NCBI GenBank assembly: GCA_030265395.1
Contig: JARFYF010000112.1
Span: forward strand, 18,108,140-18,169,709
Direction: 5' to 3'
Origin: Rhina ancylostomus
Lineage: Eukaryota
DNA: 61,570 nt
Made by a program: the position numbers and the translations under genes. A model generated the notes under the pieces. That model saw only the letters and a list, made by a program, of their open reading frames with translations. It had not been told where the DNA came from and ran no database searches. Numbering within the stretch: position 1 is the stretch's first letter; every line of letters begins with the position of its first letter. Shown one piece after another: positions 315-51,198 of the stretch.

Positions 315-1223
315 GTATTGGTATTATTTGCTATTGGTTTATTATTGTCACTCGTACTGAGGTACAGTGAAAAGCTTATCTTACAAACCGATCGTACAGG
401 TCAATTCATTACACAGTGCAGTTACATTGATTTAGTACAAAGTGCATTGACGTAGTACTGGTAAGAACAGTAACAGTACAGAGTAAAGTGTCACAGCTAC
501 AGAGAAAGTGAAGTGCAATAAGGTGCAAGGTCACAACATGGTAGANNNNNNNNNNNNNNNNNNNNNNNNNNNNNNNNNNNNNNNNNNNNNNNNNNNNNNN
601 NNNNNNNNNNNNNNNNNNNNNNNNNNNNNNNNNNNNNNNNNNNNNGCTTTCTATGGTGCATCTGTAAAAGTTGGTGAGAGTCAAAGGGGACAAACCAAAT
701 ATCTTTAGCCTCTTGAGGAAGTAGAGGCACTGGTGAGCTTTCTTGCCCGTGGCATCTACGTGATTTGACCAGGACAGGCTGTTAGTGATGTTCACTTCCA
801 GGAACTTGAAGCTCTCAGCTATCTCGACCTCAGCACCATTGATGTAGACAGGTGCATGTACACCTCCCCCTTTCCTGAAGTCAATTTCCAGCTCTTTTGT
901 TTTGTTGACATTGAGGGAAAGGTTGTTGTCATGATCCCATTCCACTAAGCTCTCTATCTCCTTCCTGTACTCTGACTCATTGCTGTTTGAGATACGGCCT
1001 ATAATGGTGGTATTATCTGCAAACTTGTACATGGAGTTAGAGCAGAATCTGGCCACACAGTCATGAGTGTATAGGAAGTAGATTAGAGGGCTGAGGATGC
1101 AACCTCGTGGGGCATCAGTGTTGGGAGTAATCGTGCCGGAGGGATTGCTGCCTATCCTCACTGATTGTGGTCTGTTTGTTAGAAGATCAGGGATCCAGTT
1201 ACAGAGGGAGGTGTTGAGTCCTA
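315..1223 (-). mobile_element. 5'-truncated Rex1/Babar-type LINE (reverse transcriptase C-terminal half plus 3' tail), 100-N gap inside
   Basis: ORF 409-1239(-) has RT motifs [53 protein letters not shown]. The tail ends in CCAATA-like repeats. Flanked by TGTATG at 309-314 and 1224-1229. Confidence 0.85.
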
Positions 1224-1539
1224 TGTATGCTTCCAGCATTTTCTATTTTTATTTCAGGACATAAGTTTGACTACTTGATTATTTCATTTGACAGCTGTTA
1301 TTCTCCAGATCAGAGAGCTATACATTCTGAATCTTAAATGTTATGTGAAAATCTTAGTTTTGAATATAATTTATCGAAGATTATGGGACTGATAGGGCAA
1401 ATGTTGAGACCATAGATCAGATCAGCCATGAACTCATTGAATGGTTGGAGTATGTGTGCAGGAACATATGGCCTAACCCTTGTCCTTTTTTATATATATG
1501 ATTTATTGCCTCATTTGGGTAAATGCAGTTAGTCAAACC

Positions 1540-2280: not shown

Positions 2281-2444
2281 TTCTCAACCCAATTTGTATT
2301 CAGCACAGGCATTGTGGGCTGAAGGGCCTGTTCCTATGCTGTACGGTTCTATCTTTTAAAATCAGCTTATTGAAATCTTGTTTTCTGCCAACAAATAACC
2401 CTTAATCCAGGCCAGCATATTACCCCCAATCTGATGTTTTCTTA

Positions 2445-3165
2445 TCATGGTGTCAGAACAACAACAAAATAGCCCTTAATGTCAACAAGATGAAAGAGTT
2501 GCCCTATGGAAGTGTGGGGGGGGGGGTGCTCGGGGGAGATGGTTGTGTGGGTGAAGACAATCCTGTCCTCATCAACGGAGCTGCTGTAAAGGTGGTTGAC
2601 AGCTTCAAGTTTCTTGGCATTCATGACACTAGCAACCTGATCTGGTCCCTTCATACTGATGCAGTGATCAAGAAAGTGCGTCAGCATATTTGCGTCTGAG
2701 AAGATTCAGCATGTCCACAAGGTTTCTCCTGAAATTTGACAGATGAGCTATAGAAAGCCTGGTATAACAACTGCACTCTCTTGACTGATGGAACCTAGGG
2801 AGAGTGGTAAATACTGCCCAGTCCACCTTCATGGTGCGTTGCTTCAGGAAGGCTAGTAGTATCATCAAGAATGCCTGTCACCCTGGTCATTTCCTTTTCT
2901 CTTCTACCTTCTGGGGGAAAATACAGGAGCTTAGAAGCTCAGATGGCTGGACTTAAGAACAACATCCCCACTGCTATCAGGCTTCTGGATGAATCACCTC
3001 TTTCATACCCCTTTCTTTCTGCACTACTTCATATTGCACTACAATCTTTGCACCATACTGCTATTTTGTGCATGCTGTATTATTGTATTTATTATTACCA
3101 TGTATACTGTTTACTCTGTGAGCTTCATTACGCCTGGGTCTATATGACAATAAACTAATCTAATT
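2445..3165 (+). mobile_element. Degenerate Rex1/Babar-type LINE fragment with 3' tail
   Basis: Motifs INGAAVKVVDSFKFLGIH..LIWSLHTDAVIKK and FSLLPSGGKYRSL; ends in 'tatatgacaataaactaatctaat'. Confidence 0.75.
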
Positions 3166-5151: not shown

Positions 5152-6090
5152 AGTCATAGAGTGATACAGCACAGACAGACCCTTTGGCCCATTGAGTCCA
5201 TACTAACCACTAAGTACCCATTTATGGTAATTATACACTAATATTTTATTCTCCCCATATTCCAACCAACTCCCAGTTTTTACCATTCACCTGCTTAAAA
5301 GAGGCAATTTATGGTGGGCAATTAACCTACCAACCCACTAGTCTTTGGGATGTGGGAAGAAACTGAAACCAACATGGTACAGATAGTCAAGTTGAGTTTA
5401 TTGTCCCATGCACAAGTACAGTGAGGTATGGGTTCAATGAAAAATTTGCTTGCAGCAGCATCACAGGCATGTAGGTACAGACAACACACAAAATACTGTA
5501 AAGAGGAGAGAAGGAAGGATTGTCCAAAAGCAATCACTGCTAAAAAAAGACAGATAAGTCCATGGTAGTGCAAGAGGTGGTCCATAGTGTTCTATTGCTG
5601 AGGAAGTCCTAGGATTGTGTAGGTTGGTTTAAGAACTTGATGGTAGTAGGAAAGTAACTGTTCCTAAACTGATGGTGTAGGATTTCAGGCTTCTGTACCG
5701 CCTGCCTGACAGTAGCAGTGAGAAGAGGGCATAACCTGGATGGTGGAGATCCTTGATGCTAGATGCTACCTGCTTGAGGCAGCACCTGCTGAAGATGCTG
5801 TCAGTGGTAGGGAGGGGTGTGTCCACTACACTCTGCAGCCTAGTGTTTCTGTGCATTGGAATTGCCATGATGCAACCAATCAGGATACTTTCAAAGTACA
5901 TCTGTTGAAGTTTGTTGAGAGTATTTGATGACATGCCAAATCTTAATCTTCTAAGAAAGTAGAGGCACTGGAACACCTTCTTCATGATTGCAGGGCCCAG
6001 GACAGATCACCCAAGAACGAGCAAACTCCAGACAATCAACACTGGAAGTCAGAAACGAATTTGGGTTGTTGGTGCTGTGAGGCACCATGC
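5152..6090 (-). mobile_element. tRNA-derived SINE (5152-5375 and ~6015-6090) interrupted by a Rex1-type LINE fragment (~5385-6010)
   Basis: SINE core 'tctttgggatgtgggaagaaactg' lies on one side and the head 'gcaaactccagaca...gctgtgaggca' on the other. Between them is ORF 5629-5985(-) with CLYFLRRL and FSLLLSGRRYRSLKS. Confidence 0.7.
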
Positions 6091-14317: not shown

Positions 14318-14894
14318 GTAAGAATAATGCACAGATCCCCTCTGAGAATGTCATTAGTGTAAGATATGGCTCACATTGTTGCACTTCTTCTGAATATTTA
14401 ACATAGTAAATTTAGTCTAGGTATCTGCTTGTAGCTTTACAAAACAAAACACCCTTGAGGTTTACAGATGTTCTGAATGTGGATTAGCATAAATTCAACA
14501 TGTTTCCTACAGTTAGCCCTTTTCAACTATTTGACAAATTATTTGAAAACACTGATAAAAGAAATTTGTATAGAATTTACAATACAGGTTTGGCTGTTAG
14601 GCTTAACTGGTCTATGCTGTTAAATATTCCTGCATGGGTATTAATTTACTCCTATTGGTATGTGATTCTGTTCACTTCAACTTCATGAAGTTTTTTTAAA
14701 AAAACTCAGTTGCAATGAAGTGGTCTGTGTAGTAGTAGGTTGCACATTCTGACCAGTAATTGGGATAAAACATTGGGGAATTGCATTACGGGATTTGTTA
14801 CTGACACTTGTCTTAAATTTGGATTTGAGTGGAAATATCTCAAGAAAATGGTTAAACCAAAATCTGGCTTTTTCTAAATTTTCTATTTTATTAG

Positions 14895-15048
14895 AGCACA
14901 CGACGCTCGGGAAGAACTAATTGAATTCCAGGAAGGAAGTCGAGAACTGGAAGCAGAATTGGAGACGCAGCTTGAACATGCTGAAAATAGAAATCGCGAG
15001 CTGCTGTCAGACAACAATCGTCTCCGTATGGAACTTGAGTTGTTTAAG
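14895..15048 (+). CDS. NDE1: NDE1 coding exon 2 (coiled coil)
   Basis: [51 protein letters not shown]; AG/GT boundaries, 154 nt, phases consistent. Confidence 0.96.
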
Positions 15049-18004
15049 GTGTGTTGGTGGGGAAACTCTTCGTAAATATAACAGCCATGTGTTTTAATAC
15101 AACCATTTTAAATACTAGTAAATTGAACACTTGGCCTGTGGTTATTATCAGAGTTGAGCTTTAACATAAAATTTGGCCTGGTGTTCGTTGCAATGACTAA
15201 ATCGTGTTCCAAGGCCGGCCTACCTACCTGCCTAGAACTCTTATTGCAAGGACTGCATTGGGATTTGTGATGATTGCATCGAGGTAAGTTTGCCTCCATT
15301 ACTGATGTGTTCTCTGTGAAACAGAGCTATGTTTTGAGAGGTAATTTTTGAGTAGGCTTTGATCTGTTAAATACAACTTGTGAGAAATCTTTTTCTGATT
15401 CTTTGGCAGCTGGCCACCAAGCCTTCCAATGTTCTATTTTGTATTAGTTTGGGGAATAATTGTCAAGTCAGTGGATTCTTTCTGTTAACAGAAAACTCGC
15501 ACGTGACGTTTAATGAGTATGACTTTCCACATTAATCCTCGTTTTTATCTATATATTATGTTGACAGGGAAGGATATTACAATGATAATTGCATTTATTT
15601 TGGGCTTCAAGGATCACAGTCAATATGAACAGGCTGTTTATTCATTGCGGGCACAACCCTACGTCTGTGGTGGGCTCATTTTATCGTGATGTTAATTTGG
15701 CAGAAGATCAGATCATTACTGGTGGCAAGAGGTTTGTTCTGTAAATGAATCTGTTCATAGTCTGACACTATAAATGGGTATTGAATTTATTCACCAAGCT
15801 TTTTTTCAATGATTCGTTTTCAAAACTTTCAATAATACCAATTATATAAACTTTCTTAGATATGGTTTTGTCTTTGAATACATATTCTAATATTTGACAT
15901 GCTTTTGAGCATTTGTTTAAAATCTGAAGTCTTTGCTTAGTTGATAAATCTTTCATTTTATTCTGTAGAAAGATAATTTCAGAAGAATTTCTTTGAATTT
16001 GTCTCTACTGTTAGGTAACTTGTACTAAACTTGCTAACCTGTTTAAGAAATATGTTTTTAAAGTGAATAAAAAGGCATTGTTTAGACTGGTATACAGACA
16101 GTGGCCTTTCCTTTTTAAAAAAAAGGAATTGATTGCTGTAATCTGCTGTGCAATTTGCTGAATTTTGACTTGTGTAGGTGCTGGATGTAATTCTGGATTT
16201 ATAAATGTGAATAATTGGGGTAAGTTTTTGGTTGAAATGGAATAAATGAGGCCTGCCAGAGTTGCAAATATAGATCTATTTTGGTTAGTTAAAAAGAAAT
16301 CCATTGCTATCAGTGTTGTAGCTCTGTCAAAGGGGTACTGTTAGGTGCAGGATTTTTTGAAAGGCAGTGTGATCTGTGGTAAAAGAGCTTGCTGCACTAA
16401 TCATGGACTTCTGGGTTTTATTTGTAAAGAGAATTTTGACCTATATAACTGAATAGTCACTCGTATGGCACAGTTGATGATGGGTAGAAAATTGCAAATA
16501 TGAGCTTAAAACCATGTCAAGTGAGTTGATTTTAGCTGTGGACACTGATTGTGAGGAAAAATTTGATCTTGCTGATTCTGACTTGTGCAATTTTGACGTG
16601 TATAACAGGATACTGGTGATATTAAAGGTAGGCTTTCCCAAGGTGGCCCTTTTATAATCGTTCTGTTAGCAATTTGTTCTGGTGACACACTGGAGGTCCA
16701 ATATGACCAATAGGAACTTTATCTAATTTGAGGTTCTGTGTTCTGTCTTTGACTTGAAAAATTAAAAGCTAATTTGTATGGTAATATTGCTTTGTGCACT
16801 TTATGTACAAAGGGAATTTTATGACAGACTTGGTCTATTTCTGATCATATTTAACAGTTATCTTGATTTAAAGTTTTAAAAACTTTTTGAATTCCCATTT
16901 GAAGTTGTGTGCTTGTTAAATTCTGAGTCATCACTGCAAACAAAAATCCAATTTTTTTAAATTCAAGTCTATTAATGAAATGGTTCTTTATTTGCTGTTC
17001 TTGGAACTAGTTTTGGAATTGCCCTGTTTACATTCTTGAAGAATGGTCATAGTCACAAAATATAGAAAAAAGGCCCTTTTGGCCCACCAAGTCCACCCAT
17101 CCATTTACACTAATCCTGCATTGCCTTCATTATCTTCTAATCAAAGAAATTTAAAGATTTTACACATTTGCTGCAAGGACTGTAAAATGGGTTATGCTAC
17201 TTGCACCAATTTACTTCTGTACTAATTTCCTAATACTAAAATCGAAGTGGATCAGTTTTGTTTAATTGAATTTGTTTAAGGGTAGGCAGGAGCACTTCAG
17301 GTACTCAGCAGGTCAATGTTCAGCTTTGAGTTTACAGACCCATCTCTCTCTGTGACTGTGTATTAAATTTGTTTATTTGCACTTGTGTTGTAATTGCAAG
17401 ATTTTATTGCAGAAGTATTATTTGCTGGTGGCTGTTTTCACTTTGGTAGCTTGGGTTTGTAGCAAATGTGAATAAATGGGGAAAGAGCAGATAAGAGACC
17501 ATAGACTTGAATTTTTCAGCTCAAGTTCTGATGAGCTTTGCAATTCTTCTATGAAGGTGGAATTCCAAGATGTGCTGGCTGAGCTCTGCCTGGCTGCATT
17601 CCACGCTGTGCCATCCTTTGTCCAGCAGCAGAGCAACACCCGTCCTGAAATTGCCTGGCATTCACATGAGAGAATCTGCTCTGATCACAGTTGCCGAATG
17701 GTTACAGCATGGAAGGAAGCTATTTGGCAAATTGAGTCTGCACTGGCTTTATCGAAGAGCAATCTTGATGGTCCCACTCCTTTATAACCCCATGACAAAA
17801 TCTTCCTCTGTGCTACCTCTGGAGTGTAGTTATGGTCTTAACTATTTGCTGCATTTGAAAATATCACTTTTTAAGGTTCTTTTGCCATTCTGTCTTCTGA
17901 TACTTGAACACTTCAATAGAAATAGTTTCTCTCAAGCTTCATTACTTTAAATCCTCTTGCATTCTTGTTTTCAATAGAACGATCCCACAAGCACAGTCCT
18001 TCAT

Positions 18005-18527
18005 CCCTCCAAGAGAGATGATCAAAACTAACCCGACTCAAGTTTTGTCAAGGGCAGGTCCTGTCTCACGAGCCTGAGTGAATTTTTTGAGGATGTGACT
18101 AAGCACATCGATGAGGGGAGAGCAGTGGATGNNNNNNNNNNNNNNNNNNNNNNNNNNNNNNNNNNNNNNNNNNNNNNNNNNNNNNNNNNNNNNNNNNNNN
18201 NNNNNNNNNNNNNNNNNNNNNNNNNNNNNNNGGGCTGAAATGGTGGCGACAAGAGGACATGGGTTTAAGGTGCTAGGGAATAGATATAGAGGAGATGTCG
18301 GTGAAAGTTTTTTTTACTCAGTAGTGAGTGTGTGGAATGGGCTGCAGGAAATGGTGGTGGAGGTGGATACGATAGGGTCTTTCAAGAGACTGTTAGATAG
18401 GTACATGGAGCTAAATAAAATGGAGGGCTATAGGTAAGCATAGTAATTTCTAGGGTAGGGACTTGTTCGGCACAGCTTTGTGGGCCGAAGGGCCTGAATT
18501 GTGCTGTAGTTTTTCTATGTTCTAAGT
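18005..18527 (+). mobile_element. CR1/HER1-type LINE; RT fragment and 3' end separated by an assembly gap
   Basis: FVKGRSCLTSLSEFFEDVTKHIDEGRAVD before the gap; TRGHGFKVLGNRYRGDV...SFKRLLDRYM and tail 'gggccgaagggcctg...tctatgttcta' after it. Confidence 0.85.
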
Positions 18528-19965
18528 TGTAGCTAAACTGGTGTATGTTTATTATGACTTGCCTGCTCTTGTATTCTGATCAGGATCCTGTTTGCTGCAA
18601 TAACCACTTTCAACAAATTTGTCTTCTCCCCTCCCCCCCGATCTGTTTTTGTATCTTTTTTTCTCATTCTTCCTACCAAACTGTGACACTTTGAATTTCA
18701 TCCACCACATCTCAACTATTCCACCAATCTGCCTTTCGAAGTCTCTGCCTATTTTCTCATGTCACCTATTGTTCACCATGTCTCCGAGCTCTGTGCCATT
18801 TGCAAATTTGGATATTGTACCTGGTACACCCAAAGCTTTAATACAAAAGTAGTCCTGGAAGAAATTGCTTGAACTCCACTATATACATCAATCAAGTAAA
18901 TAACCTATTTGCTACTATATATTAAATTGGGCTATGTTTTGATCTATGCAGCCATGGCTTGCTTTATTCCATCAATTTGAATCTTGATGACAAGCCTATT
19001 ATTTGAGCACTTTTATCAATGCCTTTTTTTTTGGGAACTTTGGATAATACCATGTGAGCTGTCTCTATGTCAAAAAGGACTATGAAGTTAATTGGATACT
19101 ATTTGCCTTTAGAGAAAGCCAGCACAGATTTGCTAATCATTCCATTCATGTACTATTTCTGTTGCTGACTGTTTGTAGAACCAGTTCCAATAGAGATTAA
19201 ACTGACTGGGCTGTAGTTGCTGGAGTGATTCTGATGCCCTTTTATTGAACAAAGGTGTAACACTTGCAATTTCTGTGGTGTTGGTTACCATCTTTGAATA
19301 TTTAGATGCTGGATTATGGGCAAGGCCTCTGCTTTCTTCCTCTTCCCTCCACAACCTATGACACATTCCATCTGGACAAGACTATTTACTCACTTATATT
19401 GCTTTTCAAGTACTTCCCTTTTATGGAAGTTTTAGCCCATTCAGAATCTGAACCACTTTCTTTGAAACTTTGGTTCATTGCTCGGAGTTGAAAACGGGGT
19501 CAGATTCTCATAGTGTGAGAACGGAGGAGTAGCTGGTATTTTCTTGTCAAGTTTATTATTAATAAATGCATTTGAAGTTTAAATTAATATTTAATTCAAT
19601 GTAGATTATTGCAGTTTATTGTCTCAACAATTGACTTTTGTCCTCTTTCTCCTACCATCCAATAAAAAATATAGATAAGCAGTTCCTTGGGTGATAGGAG
19701 TCCTTATTAAGCTATTCTAGATTATCAATGATGGATGATCAAGGAACTCCAGATGCTGGAAATCTGAAATAAAGATAATTGTTGGAGGTACTAGAGTAAT
19801 TCTGATTGCAGGATTGATGGCCTGAAGTATTAGCTAGTTTGGTTTTGGATTAAAAAAAACGCACTGAATTTGAGTGAAGGAGGAACTGCCTTTATTACCC
19901 AAATTAGACTAGTATGGTGAAGTCTATCATCAGTTATTTAAGCGATATCTAATTTGTAATTTCAG

Positions 19966-20114
19966 GAAAAGCTAGAAGAGCATCACACAGAGAATTATAA
20001 GCAAATTAGTTTGCTGCAAGATGAACTTACTGAGACCACAGCAGTTAAAGACCAACTGCAGAAGTACATTAGAGAACTGGAACAAGCCAATGACGATTTG
20101 GAAAGAGCAAAAAG
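19966..20114 (+). CDS. NDE1: NDE1 coding exon 3
   Basis: [49 protein letters not shown](R); TTTCAG acceptor, AG|GTACT donor, 149 nt. Confidence 0.96.
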
Positions 20115-22364
20115 GTACTCCTTCAATGTATTACTATGTTGAATGTTTGCAACAACTGTAAATTTATGAAAAAGATTTGAAGGGAATCTGATGAGAGCCA
20201 TTTCCTCTGGCTGGAAAGTTTAGAATTTGGCCATATCCTGAAGATAAAGGGTTAACTATTTCTGAGATGAAATTTCTTTCACCTTGTTTCATTTACTTTC
20301 TACAAGGACCCTGAATGCTCAGGTATCAAATATACTTGAGACAAAGCAATGCTGGATCTTTGGATGCTGTGGATAATGGGGATTAAGCAGGAATGGGGGC
20401 TTGAAAGAGAAGATGAGACCTGATGCGTAAAGCAAATATGATGGTCCACTGCTATTGTCCTTGGGTTAACATGCAAGATTTATAAGCTATTTGGGCATGT
20501 CGGTGAGGATGGTTGCCCAGTAATGTTCTCTTATGTATAGTTGCACATTGTACAAAGAATTCAGTAAAGTTGTAAACTTGTACATCTTGTGATCTAATAG
20601 TCTTTGGAAACCTGACTGTGAACGTGATTGGAAACTGCATTCTTCAAGCTATTGGATAATCAGAAAGGCTAAAGAAATGGAGAGAAATAGTCTAAAGTTT
20701 GATAATAAACCAATTAATGGTAGAAAGGGCATTTGATAAAGGCTAGACAGGAATGTAGTGCTGTGGTTCTCAGTAGAAGGGTTTGGGGAAGAAGTTGTCT
20801 GTAGTTCTGACATTTGATATGATAGTGAAATGTGGAATTGTATCAGTGAAATGTAGCTGGTGCTCATTGGCTAGGTCCCATCTGAAATAAATCCAGTCCA
20901 CAGATGCTGAAACGTTTTTGATAGTTGGCTAAGTCAAAAGTCCTGATTTGTCCAACAGTCAAACAAAACATTTTGAATCTGATATTCAAAAATCCTTAAG
21001 CTATTAATTAAGTTAATTATTTGTTAAAGTTGGAATATTAAAACCTTAACTATTTAATATATTTTAAATATCCAAAGCTTAATTAACTTTATGCCCCTTT
21101 GCCATTCCTGTCCATTAAAACCAATAGTTCCTGTTGCTGGTACAAGTTCAGCAGGTGTATTTCCCAATGTTTGTGCTAGGGAAGTTTGTTCTGTCACTGG
21201 ACTCTGAGCAGGAGGAAAATACAAGCTTTCAAGGTTGCTTCAATGGGGAAAAAATACTCCACTTTTCCAAGTTTTAGATCTTTTGATAATATACATCTGC
21301 TTTGTATTTACTTGCAATAAGATAACCTCTCAAATGTGTGCTCCTCCTGAAGTCAAACATCAAAATTCTGCAGATATAGGAAGCACTTTCCAGACAGCAT
21401 CTTTTGGCAAAGGAAACGGTCATAACAAAATTCACCTGCCTAAAATGTTACATGTTGTTCTCTCCAGAAGTAATAACTTGATAGTTGAATATTTCCATTT
21501 GTTTTATTACTGTGCATAATATCTTTTGATACACAATCTACTTGTGATGGCAAAGTGTCAAATTGCATGTTAATTTGGATTGTGAGTTTGAAATTTGGTA
21601 GGATTGTTTACTTCAATTATTAAGGGATGAAGGTATTCTGTAATGTTTTTATAATGAGTCTTGTTTCTAATTCTAGCAGCCAATGAGCATTTTTTTTAAA
21701 AAGCTGGAAATGAAACACTATTTTGGGAGCCAGCTTAAAATGTGCAGCCTTGGTTATTGTGTCCAGACACTGGGCTCCCTTTAGTTTTTCCCTATATAAT
21801 CGAAAATGGTTAACTACACTTTGTAGTTTAGTATTTGAATACCTACAGTGATTTAATGAAAATTGTTTTCAGTGTCTCACTTAAAAAAAATAGTAAATCA
21901 GTTTGTATTTAGTGGGCATTTATGTAAAATAATAAGTATTGCCAGTTATGGGTGATGCATTTTTTAATCTGCAGATCAACACTATCAAAGTCGAGCATTG
22001 GTATTTTATAACACTTTCCCCAGTGTTGGAATGTTTTTTAATGAAGCATTAGATATCAGAAGATGAACTGTGAATTATGAAAACACTTTTAAGATTCTAT
22101 GCTACTAGTTCAACAGTGATTTAGAGGCTAATTGTATAGTGATTTGGCAAACATTGGTTTTAGTGGCTTTTAGGGAAGTTGTAAGTAATATAGCATCATT
22201 TTATTTCTTGAACAGTGTTTACATCTTGCAACTTAAGTTTACATTTTATTGAAGCCCAGGTTAAGTTTCAGATTGAAAATTGTAACTTTCCATCTTTTGG
22301 ACCCTTTTTGTCTTGTGACACCTGGTGTTTGCAGTGATTTATCCTAAATCTCTTCTGATACTAG

Positions 22365-22562
<198 letters not shown>

Positions 22563-41354: not shown

Positions 41355-43759
41355 NNNNNNNNNNNNNNNNNNNNNNNNNNNNNNNNNNNNNNNNNNNNNN
41401 NNNNNNNNNNNNNNNNNNNNNNNNNNNNNNNNNNNNNNNNNNNNNNNNNNNNNNAGAGATGATCATCACTGCCTGGTCAGTAATATTTTTATAGTATGGT
41501 AGCCCTTGCAGCTAAATATCAGCCTCCTTTTGATCTTGTAAGAAAGTTGCTTCTGATGATGGTGAGAACTCCCATCTATATCTAGAAGACCGTGTAATTT
41601 TGGTGTATGCTGATCTCTCGGATGTCTTTGAAGTTGTGCAAACTTTTACCATTAAACTTGCATTTGGATGAGGAGCCTGTGTAATTTAATTACACTTTAA
41701 AAGGATGGGAAAGCATTTTATTTTCTATATTTTAAACTTTTTAAATGAATGTATCTTTTTCTGCAGATCCATTTTAGTGTCTATTAATTGGAAAATCACT
41801 TGCAGTAATGGGACAAAGATCCAACAAAAGCGGTCATTAGAATTGTTTAGGATGCACTCTGATTATTTTCCAAGAGATGATAGACATTTGGAGAAGCATG
41901 TTGCTGATAATGTTTGGTGAATTCTGATTCACAGAGCACCTTTGAGAAAGCTGGATGCATGCAATCAAGGTAGGAACTCTGATAAATAATGTTCAGTGTA
42001 GTCTGCAGCATATTTTGATGGTTTAAAGGGGTTGATGAGATCCCCTTTCTCCTTCTCTCATGCTTCTACATCCCCCCTCCCCCCAGGTGTGTCAGCTTCT
42101 TTCTTTTGTGTCTCTCCAGTGTTTACAGATAGGGTAGAGAGTCCAATGTGATGCAGTTCATTTTCCCTTACCATGCCTGGTGTCTGTGAAGATAGCACTA
42201 ACTTTAGACAGGTTAAAAATTTGATTGCACCTTTCAATATAACGCGGACAGTGCTAGCATCACATTGAGACCTGCTCTTCCCCAAAAGGTTGTGAAATTG
42301 GTAAGGGTAAGTGTACAACAATGTGAGTGTGGTTGCTGTCTTAAAAGCAGGGTTGAATTATGACCCTCGTGGTCCCAACAGGACCAGCATCATTGTCTCT
42401 CAGCTTTTTGTTGTGCAGCAATCAGAAAAGATCATTAGCCCTTCAAGGCACAGTCCCCATGGCAACTGGAAACCATCAGCACACAGGCTGCCTGAGGAGT
42501 GAGGGGCTGCATGGGAGAATGTTGTCAGAATGGACTATTTTTCTCCTACCCCAGGGTCAGCCACCCTCCTGGACTCATCTGTTGCACCTAGCCCCACACT
42601 CTGCCTGCCACCTGTGGAATGATCATCAAGCTAAATGGTGCATGTTTTTTCCTCATTAGTCATATTCTCCAACAAAAGCACTTATTGGTAATTTGAATGC
42701 AGACTGAACACTTAAGGATGAATGAGAATTCAATGAATTTTGGAGCTGCTTTATGAAATGTCCTGAAGTTAGCAAAGTGACTTTCTAAAAGGCACCTGAA
42801 TAAAGAACAAAGCACATTGCGCACCTTGTTCTCCCGTGACTGTTAAATCAGAAGTGTTTTTCTGGACATTTTATGGTGCCAGAGGTTGAAATATGCCTTG
42901 CACTAAACTGCCATCATTAAGTGCAGTTAGTTGCTGGACATCCTGAAGTTGTCACTGGAATTGAATGGGCTAATTCTGGGATCGGCACTATTTCATCTGG
43001 AAATGATCACTGATTTACTTTGGGTAAAGTCAAATTTGGATTGTATAGCGCTGAGAAAAAACAGTACTATGCAATCCAATTTCTAGACAGGACTGTTAAG
43101 TACATTGAAATTCAATAGGCACCAACAGTCATAGCAATTGAGTTCTTAACGTAGCAGCAGATACTAACATTTCAAATGGAAAGAGGAAACACATAACTGC
43201 TATAGTTGATGTGTCAAACTACTTGTACCAGCATTATGTTAAGTATGAAGCATTCTGCTCAATTCTATAACTGTGAAAAGCTGTTCCAATCCTGTAATAT
43301 GAAAGGTTGAATCCAGTAATCAAAGTTTCCAAATCTTATAAAACCCTTCTTGGCACAATGGCATTTCAATTCCCTACAATATTTGTTTCAATGATTTCTT
43401 CACCCCACCCACATAAAGTTTCTAAAGTTTTAGTTCAGTATCAAATCTGGGCAACTTTGTGCACACTACATTCTGAGAGAGATTAATTGGGTTGCATAGA
43501 CCCATAGCTGATTGTAGTGGATAGAATCCAACCCAGGTTTTTGGAAAGGAATGAGCTTCCTTTCAAAACGGCTCCCTTGAATTGAAAGAACTGTTAAAAG
43601 TCAACATACCTAGCCCCCTTAAACTTCCATTTTGAGTGGTAGTTCAGTGATTTATTTTGTGCAGGTGTTTGATAGATAGAAAAAAGATGACAAAATAACT
43701 GTGTTTATAGATGTAAGAAAGAATAATTGTAAAGTACATGAGTTTGTGATTTAAAGTCC

Positions 43760-43765
43760 TTTATT
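43760..43765 (-). terminator. Probable MYH11 polyadenylation signal AATAAA
   Basis: TTTATT on +, ~650 nt past the SM1 stop and followed by a U-rich tract on the - strand. Alternatives at 44076-44081 and 43651-43656. Confidence 0.5.
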
Positions 43766-44409
43766 TGTGATGGTGGGTCATAAACAGCTTCAGAGATACT
43801 TTGCAGACAGTTTAGCAAGTTATGAATATATTACTGCAAATAATAGATTAATTTTAAATCCAGTACTTCAAGTGGCTAAAAAAAAGCACTTCTCTAGAAC
43901 TCTGTGACCAGTATTGCTATGGTCTAGTAGGCATGTATTGCAAATAGTACAGTAATGTGCTTGGTTCTTTCTATAAAGGCACAGATGGGCCACCCATCTC
44001 TAATGAATCTGTGTCGATGAGCAAGATCAAATCATTTCAGTAAGGGAAGTGTGCATTCTTATAATATTGATCTATTTTATTCATGGTCCAGTGGCAAAAT
44101 AATCACCTATTTTAGAATCTTATCCCATCAGGCAGTGCACTTTTAGGGATACATGTTTTAGCCTGCATTTTTACAGTGTATTTTAAATGCTAGAATATTT
44201 GAAACTTTGATACCTGTAAAACATTTAGTAAAATAAAATGGTTTTGACTACATGCATGTGAAAATAGTTGTTTTATCATGATGGGGTAGTTTGAAGGGTA
44301 GAAAAACTGTGCCCTGTTAAATACCGTGTGTGACCTTTTTAAAGCTTTTTCTAAGCATCTATATATATTTTCCCCCTTCTATACCGTAGTACTGTATGCT
44401 ACACTGTCA

Positions 44410-44551
44410 TTATTCAGTAGATTTTGTGCTGTTGAAGTCTACATCTCGTCCTCCAACGTCTTCATCAGAGTTTTCTAGTGAAGCGTTATCAATCACTCCG
44501 CGTCTGCCACCAGATCTCCGAGCACCGCCTAGCACAGGCTCATTTCCACGC
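44410..44551 (-). CDS. MYH11: MYH11 terminal exon (SM1 non-helical tailpiece)
   Basis: (R)RGNEPVLGGARRSGGRRGVIDNASLENSDEDVGGRDVDFNSTKSTE*; TAA followed by TGA; acceptor GTAG. RRGNE/RRSGGRR/DFN match the MYH11 SM1 tail rather than MYH9 or MYH10. Confidence 0.94.
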
Positions 44552-46624
44552 CTACATCAGAAAATGCAGCATATTAGCAGATGAGAAGAGTCAGCGCCAA
44601 CAATAAGTAATCCAATATTTAGCCAACCTCTCCGAACCACCCTGGCAGCATTTTTGCATATTGGGCAAAAAAAAAAGCCCAAGATGTGGTTAATCAAACA
44701 CTATATGAATGTAAGGGCTCCCCATGTTTGAGATCATTCATCAAAAAACTGTTTCGTTCAACAATAAATTAGTTCTGTGTAAGTGTCTCTCGGGTTTGGC
44801 TGGTAGATTGCGCTTATATTTTAAGATTTTTTTAAACGATGCAGCACTTTTAAAAACCTGTTCTGAAGGATTCTAAGAGTTAGGGCTTGACATTAGATTT
44901 GTCAGTCCTGGTATACACTTGATGGAATATTGCTGTTTTTTGTTGACTGTTGATCTTGGAGACTTGGTGAGATGAAGATTTGCTTTTATTTTCAAGTTTC
45001 TAACCTTTGTTGTTGAATGACAGCCATTCTCACTATCAGTCAGACAGCACAAAACTGCAGTGGTCTCTCTGTGCCTGTTGTGCCACATTTAACTATAGGA
45101 ACTTTAGAACATGCATATTGACTTGCTTGGAGACTACACATGCAAGGAGTACCAATGGCTGTATAGGTACTTTTGTTTCTCAGAATCTACCTATGCAAAA
45201 TCTACAGCTATGTTCAAGCAGTTTAATTCCAAATACAAGTGAAGTTAGAAAAACAGCATCAGTGAGTCTAGCTAGTTGATTGTGTGTGACAGGGTAATAA
45301 TCTATTGTGTATTTACTTTCCGGCTCCAGTGTTTTGATAGGAACTGTAGAGAACTTAAAACGGGTACAAATCAAACCTAAAATCCTACATTATTTCAGTT
45401 TAAATAAATTATATATATTTTTCTTCTGTTTGTCTTTAAATGAAGATATTTCAGTGAACAAGCTTTAGCCATGCTTCCTGATTGGCATATGTTTCTTTAA
45501 CCCTTTGAGGACCAAGGGATTGTTATAATTTCCAAGATATTCATCTCAATTAAATCATCAGTTAATGTCTAATTTATTATTTGAATATTCCAGAATTAAA
45601 ATTATAATTTTATTGAAATAATATGGTGAATATTCACTTCATTGCAATGCTTATATAATCCTCAAAGGGCTTGGGAAAATAAAACAGCTTGATAATATGG
45701 AATTAATGAAGCAAATAGGGTCAAACCCTTAACTGCCGCAAAATTGTGTTTTGAAAAATTCCAATGGGAATGTTTGCTTTCACAGAAAATATCCCAAATT
45801 ATTGTATGGATTATATTTCCAGCAATGTGGCCTACTTTGCTATGGAGTTGTGGGAGCTAGTTTAAGTTCTGGTCATCCGTAATGTCTGTCTTCAAAGAAA
45901 TAAAAACAGAATGTTTTCACCAAGGTCAGCTATCTGGAATACAATCACCCCCAAGAATGAATTAGTCTGTGGCACTGTTCTCAGATTTTATCTATGTCTA
46001 GCTACAAAAAGTCAGTTCCAAATATTGAGGGAAAAAATTCCATCCAAATCCAGGCTAAAGTAGGTTTGACTAATCTCTTGGCTGATTTGGCAGTGTAAGG
46101 GTTGGCACAATGGTTAGTGACAGCCTTGAGAGTGTGCGAAGATTGCACAGTTCACTGCACGTACATAGCAGTATTAAAAGTATCAAGCTTTTTTCTGTAA
46201 CAATCCATTAGAATTTTATTCTGTTTATTTTACCACATGCAATGTCATTTTCATGAAAACTAATTCAGGCGTATCAAAATCAAGATACATTTAAGTGCCA
46301 TTCACTAGGAATAACTGGCATTTCAGCTCAATGTCAGCTTGAAGCATTATAATCAATGCCTATTTTATCTAACATGTGGTATAAACAGAACACATGATGA
46401 AAAACCATGAGATAAGATTTATATTTCTCTAGGATGCTCACTATAATATGTCATATATAAATCGCATCCCGTGGCTCTTTCATCTTTAGATCACTTTATT
46501 TTCTAACATCAATCCTCAGACTTCAGAGTTTTCAGAAACTTGTCAGTATTTAAGGAGGAAATGAGATGGAAATTTGAGCAATATGGAAAGTTGCATAGCT
46601 GAGGTTTGGGAGGTACCTGGATGT

Positions 46625-46649
46625 TCACTGAGCAGGCTCATGTGCACCT
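46625..46649 (-). CDS. MYH11: MYH11 SM2-type alternative exon (exon 46617-46649, 33 nt; coding part given)
   Basis: On the - strand: cttgtctttattacag|A GGT GCA CAT GAG CCT GCT CAG TGA ACATCCAG|gtacct, encoding (R)GAHEPAQ*. Same position, phase and early-stop layout as the mammalian SM2 exon (GPPPQETSQ*). Confidence 0.82.
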
Positions 46650-48760
46650 CTGTAATAAAGACAAGATTTCCCTCATGGTTACATGTCATTCCCATCATAA
46701 ACAGTTCTTAAAGCAAATAATAATCAGATCCCATTGATGTTGTGCAGAAGTCTACAGGCTGAAAATCTCAGCTTGTCTAAATCTACTATCATTGAAACCA
46801 CTCCATATTAGATGGTGTATACAGTATACAGATAGTAACCATCTAACAATGGTTATTTTACATTGCATGATAGCTGAAGAATGGAATCTGCACTGACCTC
46901 TCAAAAGTGTTACACAGATCAATTAGAGTAAATATGTATAGCTCATTAGCTTTGAAAGTTTTCCTTGGGCAAATGATGTTAAGTACCTAGTCATGTAATG
47001 GTTATGATACTAGACTAAGATAAGATTATTAGCCTAATATTATAAGTCAAAAGGTTTTTTAAAAATTGGAACAGCACAATAAAAGTGACTATAAAAGCCA
47101 CTGAATCAAAACAACCAGAATACAAATGTCCTCAGGAATGGGAAAATGCCACCTTTGATATTCTGAGCTACACAAAACGTTAATTCCTGAGATCTGTGAT
47201 TGAGGCTTAATGTCTCTTAAAGTAGCCCTAATTGCCAATCATTTGTGTGAATACGAAGGTTCCCTCCCATCACTTAAGTCCAATTAGGAAAGGGTGATTA
47301 ATCACAAACATTCCAACCCTCCCAAGATTGACCTCCCAAGAACGGGGGTTTATGCCTTTTACTGGTAAACTATCTAGCCTAGTCCTGGCATAGGCACAGT
47401 TTTTCCAAAATCGATCATGGACTGATCATAGCAATTGGGAGACTTAATTTGCTTGCCTTTCCTCTTTTCCTCATCCCAAAACCCACCTTGTGAGGGATTT
47501 TGCCAGGTACTTTCTCTCATTTTCCCTACTGTTTGTATCACTAATGTATGTTCATCCCATGAGGTCCTAAATGGTCCTTCCAGGCACGCCCCCTTGACTT
47601 TCTGCCATAGACTGATAAACAATAGGGAACAATGGCAGTGATGAGGCCCCCTTTATTTCTCATTTCCTTAAGTGAGTCTTAATAACAGTTTTAAAATGAC
47701 ATTTCACTTAATCAAAGACGCTTGAAACCATCCTCCTCCCCAGTCTAAAATTATTCCAATGTTCTTTATGTAAGTGTAGTTAAAGCATGTATATTCAAAA
47801 AAATGAAAAAGTTGATCAATCTCTTGTTGCATGGTCTGTATCTATGTATATTTTTACAGAAGCAGATATTTCAGGTGTGGAACAAGTGGACAAAAAGGGC
47901 TGCTGTTTGTAGAAACAGGCAATCTGAGAGAGGTATGGTCACATGACCATTATAAGCAGCTGGTAATTCAGCAGTGGCTTGTGCAGACATCATACGTCCA
48001 CTTTAAATGAGGCAAGTTTGGAGCTGTGGGTCTTGGCCCTGTATACTCGCATCTGTTGGGTAGAATTTCTCTGACTGCTTGCCTTGAACCCCAGGCTACC
48101 TTCTGAGCACTATCATTCATTTGTCTCCTGTTTCAAGAGAATATTATTGGTTCCCAATTTCTCCATTTTTGGATTAGATTTGTTCATTTCTTGTTAGTTT
48201 TTTTTGTGTAGTTGCTTGGGTCACCCCTTCCAGAAATATCTTGTGTGTCTGTCTTGCATTGCTCCTTTTTTTGTACCAACCCTCACCTTCAGTTGTTGGA
48301 GACCTAGGCCACATTTAACAGACATGTTGTCCATTTCCCTTCATTACCTTGTTCTTGATGCAGCTGTCAATCCGAACCCGGATCATGAATCTGACCGCTC
48401 AGTTAATTAGGGAACAGAGCTGAAATTTGACAGCTGCTTTCCATTCCTCACTGTAATTGCGTCGTGACTAGCATGAAGTGATCAGTGGCAGTGGAAGTGG
48501 ACAGAGCAGTGAATGGGACCAGGAGAGGAAACACCAATTCTGGGAGATTTGTGAACAAAATGGGAAAGACAACCATATTGCTTTAAGGTAGGGGCACATG
48601 CAGGGTGGAACCAGCAGAGATATAGCCTGAGGGCACATGTGTATAAAATGTGTGGGTTTAAATGCCCCTCTGAAAGGAGTCAAATTTAAATTCCTGTGTG
48701 TGCCCCCGGCAAAGTAGAATTCAAACCAAATCTACTCAATCCTATTAAGGAAATTAAATA

Positions 48761-49131
48761 CAGGCAGTCTCCAGGTTACGACAGGGTTTTGTTCCTGAGA
48801 ACTGTCCGTAACCTGAACTGCTTGTGAATCGGATAGGAGTAGTTCACAGTAGTGCATGGGAGTAGTTCACAGACACAGCTGTGACAGGAGAGCGAGCAGG
48901 TGCAGGAAGAGTGCTGCCAGCCAGCCTCACTGATTCAGTGAGTGAGTGATTGAATGGGTCTGCTCACTCTGATTTTTTTTCTGGCTCAGGCTGGGTGGGG
49001 GAGGCTGTGGTGTGGGGAGAGAAGGCACACAGAAATGCCCTGTTCCCATCCCCATCCTAATGGTCTCTTAAACGATTGTTGGTATGTAGGGGGTGTCCAT
49101 AAGCTAGGTGTTGGTAACCTGGGGACGACGT
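48761..49131. mobile_element. Tc1/mariner (Tigger/pogo-like) MITE
   Basis: Left end TA|CAGGCAGTCTCCAGGTTACGAC; right end GTTGGTAACCTGGGGACGACGT|TA (imperfect inverted repeat). Internal direct repeat GGAGTAGTTCACAG x2. Confidence 0.6.
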
Positions 49132-49523: not shown

Positions 49524-49696
49524 CTTAGTTTGTTCTTCAGTGTGTTACATTCACGGGTCATGGTTTCATTCAGTTCTGTGGCTTCTTCAAGCTCTCGTTG
49601 AAGCTTGCGCCGAGATGCGTTGATACGCTGGGATTCTTCCTCTGCCTCTTCCAGCTGCCGTTTGAGCTGCTTCATGCGGGAATTGCTTTTCTCTGC
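49524..49696 (-). CDS. MYH11: MYH11 last common rod exon
   Basis: [57 protein letters not shown](R); 173 nt, CAG/GT boundaries, ends in phase 2. Confidence 0.96.
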
Positions 49697-50789: not shown

Positions 50790-51198
50790 AGTTGAGTGAG
50801 CTAGGGCTTTTCTCTTTGGAGAGAAGGAGGATGAGAGGTGACTTGATAGAGGTGTACAAGATGAGAAGAGGCATAGATCGAGTGGAGAGAGTCAGAGACT
50901 TTTTCCCCAGGGTGAAAATGGCTAACACAAGGGGGCATAATCTTAAGGTGATTGGAGGAAGGTATAAGGGGGATATCAGAGGTAAGTTTTATTTGCACAA
51001 AGAGTGGTGGGTGCGTGGAACGCACTGCCGGCAGAAGTCACGGGGGCAGATACATTAGGGATATTTAAGACACCCTTAGAAAGACACATGAATGATGGAA
51101 AGATGGAGGGCTATGTGGGAGGGAAGGGTTAGATAAATTAGAGCAGGATAAAATGTCGACCAAAGGGCCTGTACTGTGCTGTGATGTTCTATGTTCTG
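50790..51198 (+). mobile_element. Relatively intact 5'-truncated CR1/HER1-type LINE 3' end
   Basis: ELGLFSLERRRMRGDLIEVYKM..TRGHNLKVIGGRYKGDIRG; tail 'aagggcctgtactgtgctgtgatgttctatgttct'. Confidence 0.88.

Follow-up and report, generated by a model that had tools for sequence, protein, structure and literature searches.

An alternatively spliced, stop-containing exon of the SM2 type in the last MYH11 intron of the ray Rhina ancylostomus

The last intron of MYH11 in Rhina ancylostomus contains a 33-nt alternatively spliced exon of the SM2 type, located on the minus strand at positions 46617 to 46649 of the 61,570-nt stretch of genomic DNA analysed here (hereafter the window). We propose that its inclusion replaces the 46-residue tail of the heavy chain with one of 7 residues and that this exon and the mammalian SM2 exon are likely orthologues, passed down from the ancestor that jawed vertebrates share; a probability of about 0.92 is assigned to this reading as a whole. 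The exon is identified by its sequence, by joints in assembled contigs and by the presence of the same peptide in database models. Together with the identity of the host gene, these bear out the original prediction of an SM2-type, stop-containing MYH11 cassette exon in a cartilaginous fish. It must be noted that the gain is modest and the novelty low, since this is a known and ordinary feature: the SM1/SM2 switch is textbook knowledge in mammals and birds, and the SM2 exon is already modelled in public databases for fishes, including many cartilaginous ones with the same peptide.

The cassette lies between the final rod exon and the exon coding for the SM1 tail. The last rod-coding exon (49524 to 49696, minus strand) ends in LKNKL plus the AG of an Arg codon, at the donor CTAAG/GTAAAT. 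The first base of the cassette completes this codon, and translation continues as GAHEPAQ followed by a TGA stop, leaving 8 nt between the stop and the donor which become 3′ UTR. Directly 5′ of the cassette the minus strand reads ...CTTGTCTTTATTACAG, a pyrimidine-rich tract (pyrimidine fraction 0.73) with an AG of the YAG type (ACAG; acceptor at 46650 to 46665, minus strand), and the donor GTACCT (CAG/GTACCT; 46611 to 46616, minus strand) is supported by both the sequence and a contig joint. The coordinates, acceptor, donor, phase, R-GAHEPAQ reading and stop-to-donor distance all agree with those given previously. The terminal exon (43743 to 44551, minus strand) starts at 44551, preceded by TGATGTAG, and has an AATAAA about 20 nt ahead of the poly(A) site near 43743. 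Skipping of the cassette lets it code, according to its translation, for the 46-residue tail of SM1, whereas with the cassette included it is wholly 3′ UTR. The cassette stretch is single-copy in the genome.

Splicing was assessed in six sequencing runs (X1 to X6), all without an RNA label on their records, a gap that carries no weight either way. Runs X1 to X4, which belong to one organism and one study, act like assemblies of poly(A) transcripts: their best contigs follow the exons with CT..AC ends at the joints, and one X2 contig has a poly-T loose end at 43743. Given 10 to 11 differences from the window in about 780 to 810 nt of the last exon, the organism is considered a close relative. 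Both inclusion joints, 46649/49524 and 44550/46616 (cut +1), with CT..AC ends on the plus strand, were found in two of these four runs (X1 and X3) and the skipping joint in the other two (X2 and X4); as assembled contigs they attest presence only, without tissue, strand or level, and their RNA label is a guess, X1 being flagged as probably DNA. The clearest case is a single 2478-nt contig of X3 which comprises the upstream exon, the cassette and the last exon and whose shorter flank measures 34 letters at either joint. Run X1 carries both inclusion joints as well, one of them with just 27 short-side letters (the bar being 31). The junctions expected from the sequence, 49524 to 46649 and 46617 to 44551, are therefore present in transcript-like contigs of a close relative.

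The two remaining runs were DNA-like and extend over the intron. A 1963-nt contig of X5 (45504 to 47466) runs unbroken and with no differences across the cassette, although the assembly may derive from X5 and the contig therefore does not count as independent support. No match to the splice joints appeared among the 15 joints listed for X5 and X6, a statement limited to those 15 (62 more were unlisted) and not a claim of absence. In X6, which represents a second species, an 864-nt contig spans the cassette; counted in favour of the exon, it had 14 substitutions, compared with 78 over the 2240 nt of five further intron contigs (Fisher p 0.006), in a single comparison made after the fact on listed pieces only, with two contigs containing exon or UTR excluded. 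Separately, all four RNA-like runs have a contig at about 47930 to 48140 with the same loose end before 48020, whose loose letters have no second place within the window; these contigs are probably a repeat transcribed from another locus.

By sequence comparison, the host gene is MYH11 and not MYH9 or MYH10. The last rod exon matched positions 1025 to 1081 of the 1081 of Pfam Myosin_tail_1 (E 2.4e-22), its best database matches were ray and shark myosin-11 models (88 to 98%), and all 59 residues were identical to those of Pristis pectinata myosin-11, while the SM1 tail was identical to Pristis isoform X1 at 46 of 47 residues. In tblastn searches with the Pristis protein, the MYH11 exons of the window gave blocks of 86 to 100% identity, including the upstream rod exons between 53723 and 61022 (minus strand; approximate blocks 61022-60807, 59660-59499, 59227-59096, 58261-58154, 55528-55316 and 53839-53723); a weak block of 40% identity (57437-57294, minus strand) lies beside an N stretch. 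A midpoint-rooted tree was built for 24 chosen proteins from the final 600 residues of their rods; Pristis stood in for the window exons, and the tree held neither chondrichthyan MYH9 or MYH10 nor any MYH14. All 17 MYH11-labelled proteins (six of them chondrichthyan) fell on one side of a branch with 100/100 support, vs. five MYH10 and two MYH9 proteins on the other.

A gene of the NUDE family (NDE1 or NDEL1; 14878 to 22562, plus strand) stands tail-to-tail with MYH11, with Pfam NUDE_C at 22365 to 22562 (E 1.7e-19) and, for 19960 to 20139, best PDB matches to NDEL1 and then NDE1. This synteny was rejected as proof of MYH11, given that NDE1 and NDEL1 were not told apart and that MYH10 adjoins NDEL1. 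Elsewhere in the window, the open frames at 646 to 1242 (minus strand), 2406 to 2696 (plus), 5632 to 6006 (minus) and 50792 to 51055 (plus) read like fragments of LINE reverse transcriptase.

Short tails of this kind were widespread among the database proteins. A total of 401 proteins were fetched, of which 327 had at least 1500 residues and 320 a rod-end anchor; 64 of the latter had a tail of 1 to 14 residues, and removal of three unlike tails left 61 that were SM2-like. These 61 of 320 anchored full-length proteins, which are records rather than independent events in a sample steered by the choice of queries, carry their tails after the same rod-end Arg and come from all main groups of jawed vertebrates (chimaera, sharks, rays, sturgeon, teleosts, lungfish, amphibians, reptiles and mammals). 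The tail has 7 residues in 50 of them, among others in sturgeon, eels, zebrafish and other teleosts, lungfish, caecilian, frogs, gecko and alligator, and 9 residues in the other 11, from mammals, salamanders and salmonids with pike, in which the extra residues occupy different places. When the 20 distinct 7-mers are compared, all of them carry E or D at position 4, and G occupies position 1 in 16, P position 5 in 15 and Q position 7 in 17. The tail of the ray is, as had been noted, two residues shorter than the mammalian one (7 vs. 9), but this is not a peculiarity of sharks, 7 being the common vertebrate length. Since 50 of the 61 tails have this length, the proline-rich 9-mer of mammals is likely a derived form and the 7-residue tail the general one in vertebrates, as far as the sequences indicate.

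Automated gene models carry the short tail in 15 of the 20 cartilaginous species among the matches listed, which does not agree with the expectation that annotation would easily miss the exon. Four of them (Pristis, Amblyraja, Mustelus and Pristiophorus) have exactly GAHEPAQ and ten other elasmobranchs differ from it by one or two changes. No short-tail model was present among the matches listed for Leucoraja, Cetorhinus, Scyliorhinus canicula, Rhincodon and Chiloscyllium punctatum, species that may merely be unlisted because one cluster displayed 15 of its 30 members. As a side observation, the chondrichthyan models are paired, with lengths that differ by 7 residues (e.g., 1982/1975 and 1943/1936). 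The SM-A/SM-B head insert has this size, and the SM-A/SM-B switch, whose head exons lie outside the window, may therefore be equally old.

A loss of SM2 in ray-finned fishes was also considered, prompted by the lack of an SM2-length NCBI model among the listed ray-finned members and by zebrafish cDNAs, and was ruled out by the short-tail models of teleosts and sturgeon. In the accessible text of PMC4892660, only SM1A and SM1B cDNAs were recovered from zebrafish larval intestine; these count against a wide use of SM2 in zebrafish, although a RefSeq model of the SM2 type exists nonetheless.

The presence of SM2-type tails in both cartilaginous and bony vertebrates argues, by parsimony, for an SM1/SM2 switch in their common ancestor. 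This supports the original prediction that the switch predates the split between sharks and bony fishes, and from these sequences the jawed-vertebrate ancestor likely had it already, with a tail of 7 residues. The sequences covered are those of jawed vertebrates, with which the switch is likely coeval, and the short tail has a conserved core. In the literature searched, mostly outside subscription journals, there was no printed statement on the age of the switch in fishes. Orthology of the exon itself is likely, judging from its position after the same Arg and from the likeness of short peptides in predicted proteins. It could be argued that the exon is real and yet has two separate origins, one in cartilaginous fishes and one in bony vertebrates, given that any short stop-containing exon at this place gives a short tail and that peptides of just 7 to 9 residues offer a statistically weak likeness. 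We consider this very improbable: the column pattern G-x-x-E/D-P-x-Q is common to the groups, STQEPAE (chimaera), GTQEPSQ (lungfish) and STQDFSQ (sturgeon) bridge the shark and tetrapod forms, and short tails occur in every jawed-vertebrate group sampled.

With regard to mechanism, skipping joins 49524 to 44551 and gives SM1. Inclusion joins 49524 to 46649 and 46617 to 44551 and gives SM2, in which the exon that codes for the SM1 tail becomes 3′ UTR. Both outcomes are seen in the contigs of the close relative. Under the rule by which nonsense-mediated decay acts on stops more than 50-55 nt ahead of the last junction, the SM2 message is predicted to escape decay, because its stop sits 8 nt ahead of that junction. 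The same distance bears on the notion of a poison exon that lowers MYH11 output through decay, with the short peptide as a by-product. Such an exon would carry a stop in frame ahead of a later exon junction, as this one does, but the stop is just 8 nt from the last junction, two of the four transcript-like runs assembled into the inclusion form, the tail peptide is conserved across groups, and mammalian SM2 is described in the accessible part of PMC7901143 as a stable 200-kD protein. This possibility is even more remote than that of independent origin.

The splice signals taken alone are not beyond chance. Scanned under loose criteria (YAG with at least 60% pyrimidines upstream, AG/GTR donor, 20 to 60 nt), the 4972-nt intron yielded five candidates, the cassette included, and the remaining four encode nothing resembling an SM2 tail. 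Even so, a chance resemblance within the intron or an error of the assembly, to which those four candidates might point, is practically ruled out by contigs joined at the exact sites, by the unbroken genomic contig and by the identical peptide in models of four other elasmobranchs. None of the three alternatives (independent origin, poison exon, chance) accounts for the joints together with the conservation of the peptide.

Possible regulators of the cassette were sought with five motifs (RBFOX, MBNL, RBPMS, QKI and PTB) in four regions, i.e., 20 tests. None of the five was enriched within 300 nt of the cassette, and therefore no regulator is proposed. The one signal to stand out was paired CAC over the whole upstream intron, which occurred 18 times vs. 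9.2 expected (3 of 300 shuffles), a weak excess after 20 tests; downstream TGCATG occurred three times vs. 1.0 (28 of 300 shuffles). The upstream intron holds a high-copy repeat at about 48750 to 49130, with a mean depth of about 1500 to 1750 in one bin vs. about 5 in the flanks in the DNA-like runs, and the CAC excess may come from it. The accessible portion of PMC9343278 contains nothing on the control of the SM2 exon.

As for function, partial texts of PMC2173570, PMC7901143 and PMC13102872 report that, among expressed smooth-muscle rods, SM2 packs differently and assembles less stably than SM1 or than a rod without tail, and that SM1 and SM2 favour homodimers and have equal motor speed; the available text of PMC2173570 adds that SM2 assembled worse than the tailless rod. 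By analogy with these rods (PMC2173570, as available), the short tail of the ray would alter the packing of thick filaments and lower their stability, leaving motor speed unchanged. The natural variants of the SM2 tail make it possible to ask whether the effect is due to its sequence or only to its shortness. We tentatively suggest, with somewhat less than even confidence, that the ancestral tail was a 7-residue G-x-x-E-P-x-Q older than the shark/bony-fish split and was lengthened to 9 residues three times independently (in mammals, in salamanders and in salmonids with pike), that sequence and not mere truncation weakens filament assembly, and that the human exon acquired its proline run and C8 tract late.

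The mammalian SM2 exon is 39 nt long, a figure that our literature search did not turn up. In the accessible text of PMC12633039, human MYH11 exon 42 belongs to the SM2 form and encodes 9 residues and a stop; in common with the ray, it is a last-intron cassette that SM2 retains and SM1 leaves out, and it adds a short peptide and then a stop. The splice point after the last rod Arg is likewise shared (PMC2173570, as available), while the tails differ in length, 7 residues in the ray vs. 9 in mammals for SM2 and 46 vs. 43 for SM1 (PMC7901143, accessible part). The ray exon has neither the proline run nor the C8 tract, its longest C run being two, whereas in colorectal cancer the C8 tract of human SM2 is a hotspot for frameshifts, according to the available text of PMC4892660. 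Among the cartilaginous RefSeq and UniRef entries, the short myosin-11 models of Pristis pectinata (XP_051878535.1), Amblyraja radiata (XP_032896169.1) and Mustelus asterias (XP_078097037.1) end in GAHEPAQ as in the ray, and that of the chimaera Callorhinchus milii (XP_007891913.1) ends in STQEPAE; these are automated predictions, called just isoform X2 or X3 and without an SM2 label where seen. The short myh11a isoforms of teleosts and sturgeon, such as those of Danio rerio (XP_073809106.1, GNPEPTQ) and Acipenser ruthenus (XP_033886318.3, STQDFSQ), also add 7 residues after the same Arg and differ from the ray at positions 2 and 3, with salmonids and pike having 9 residues.
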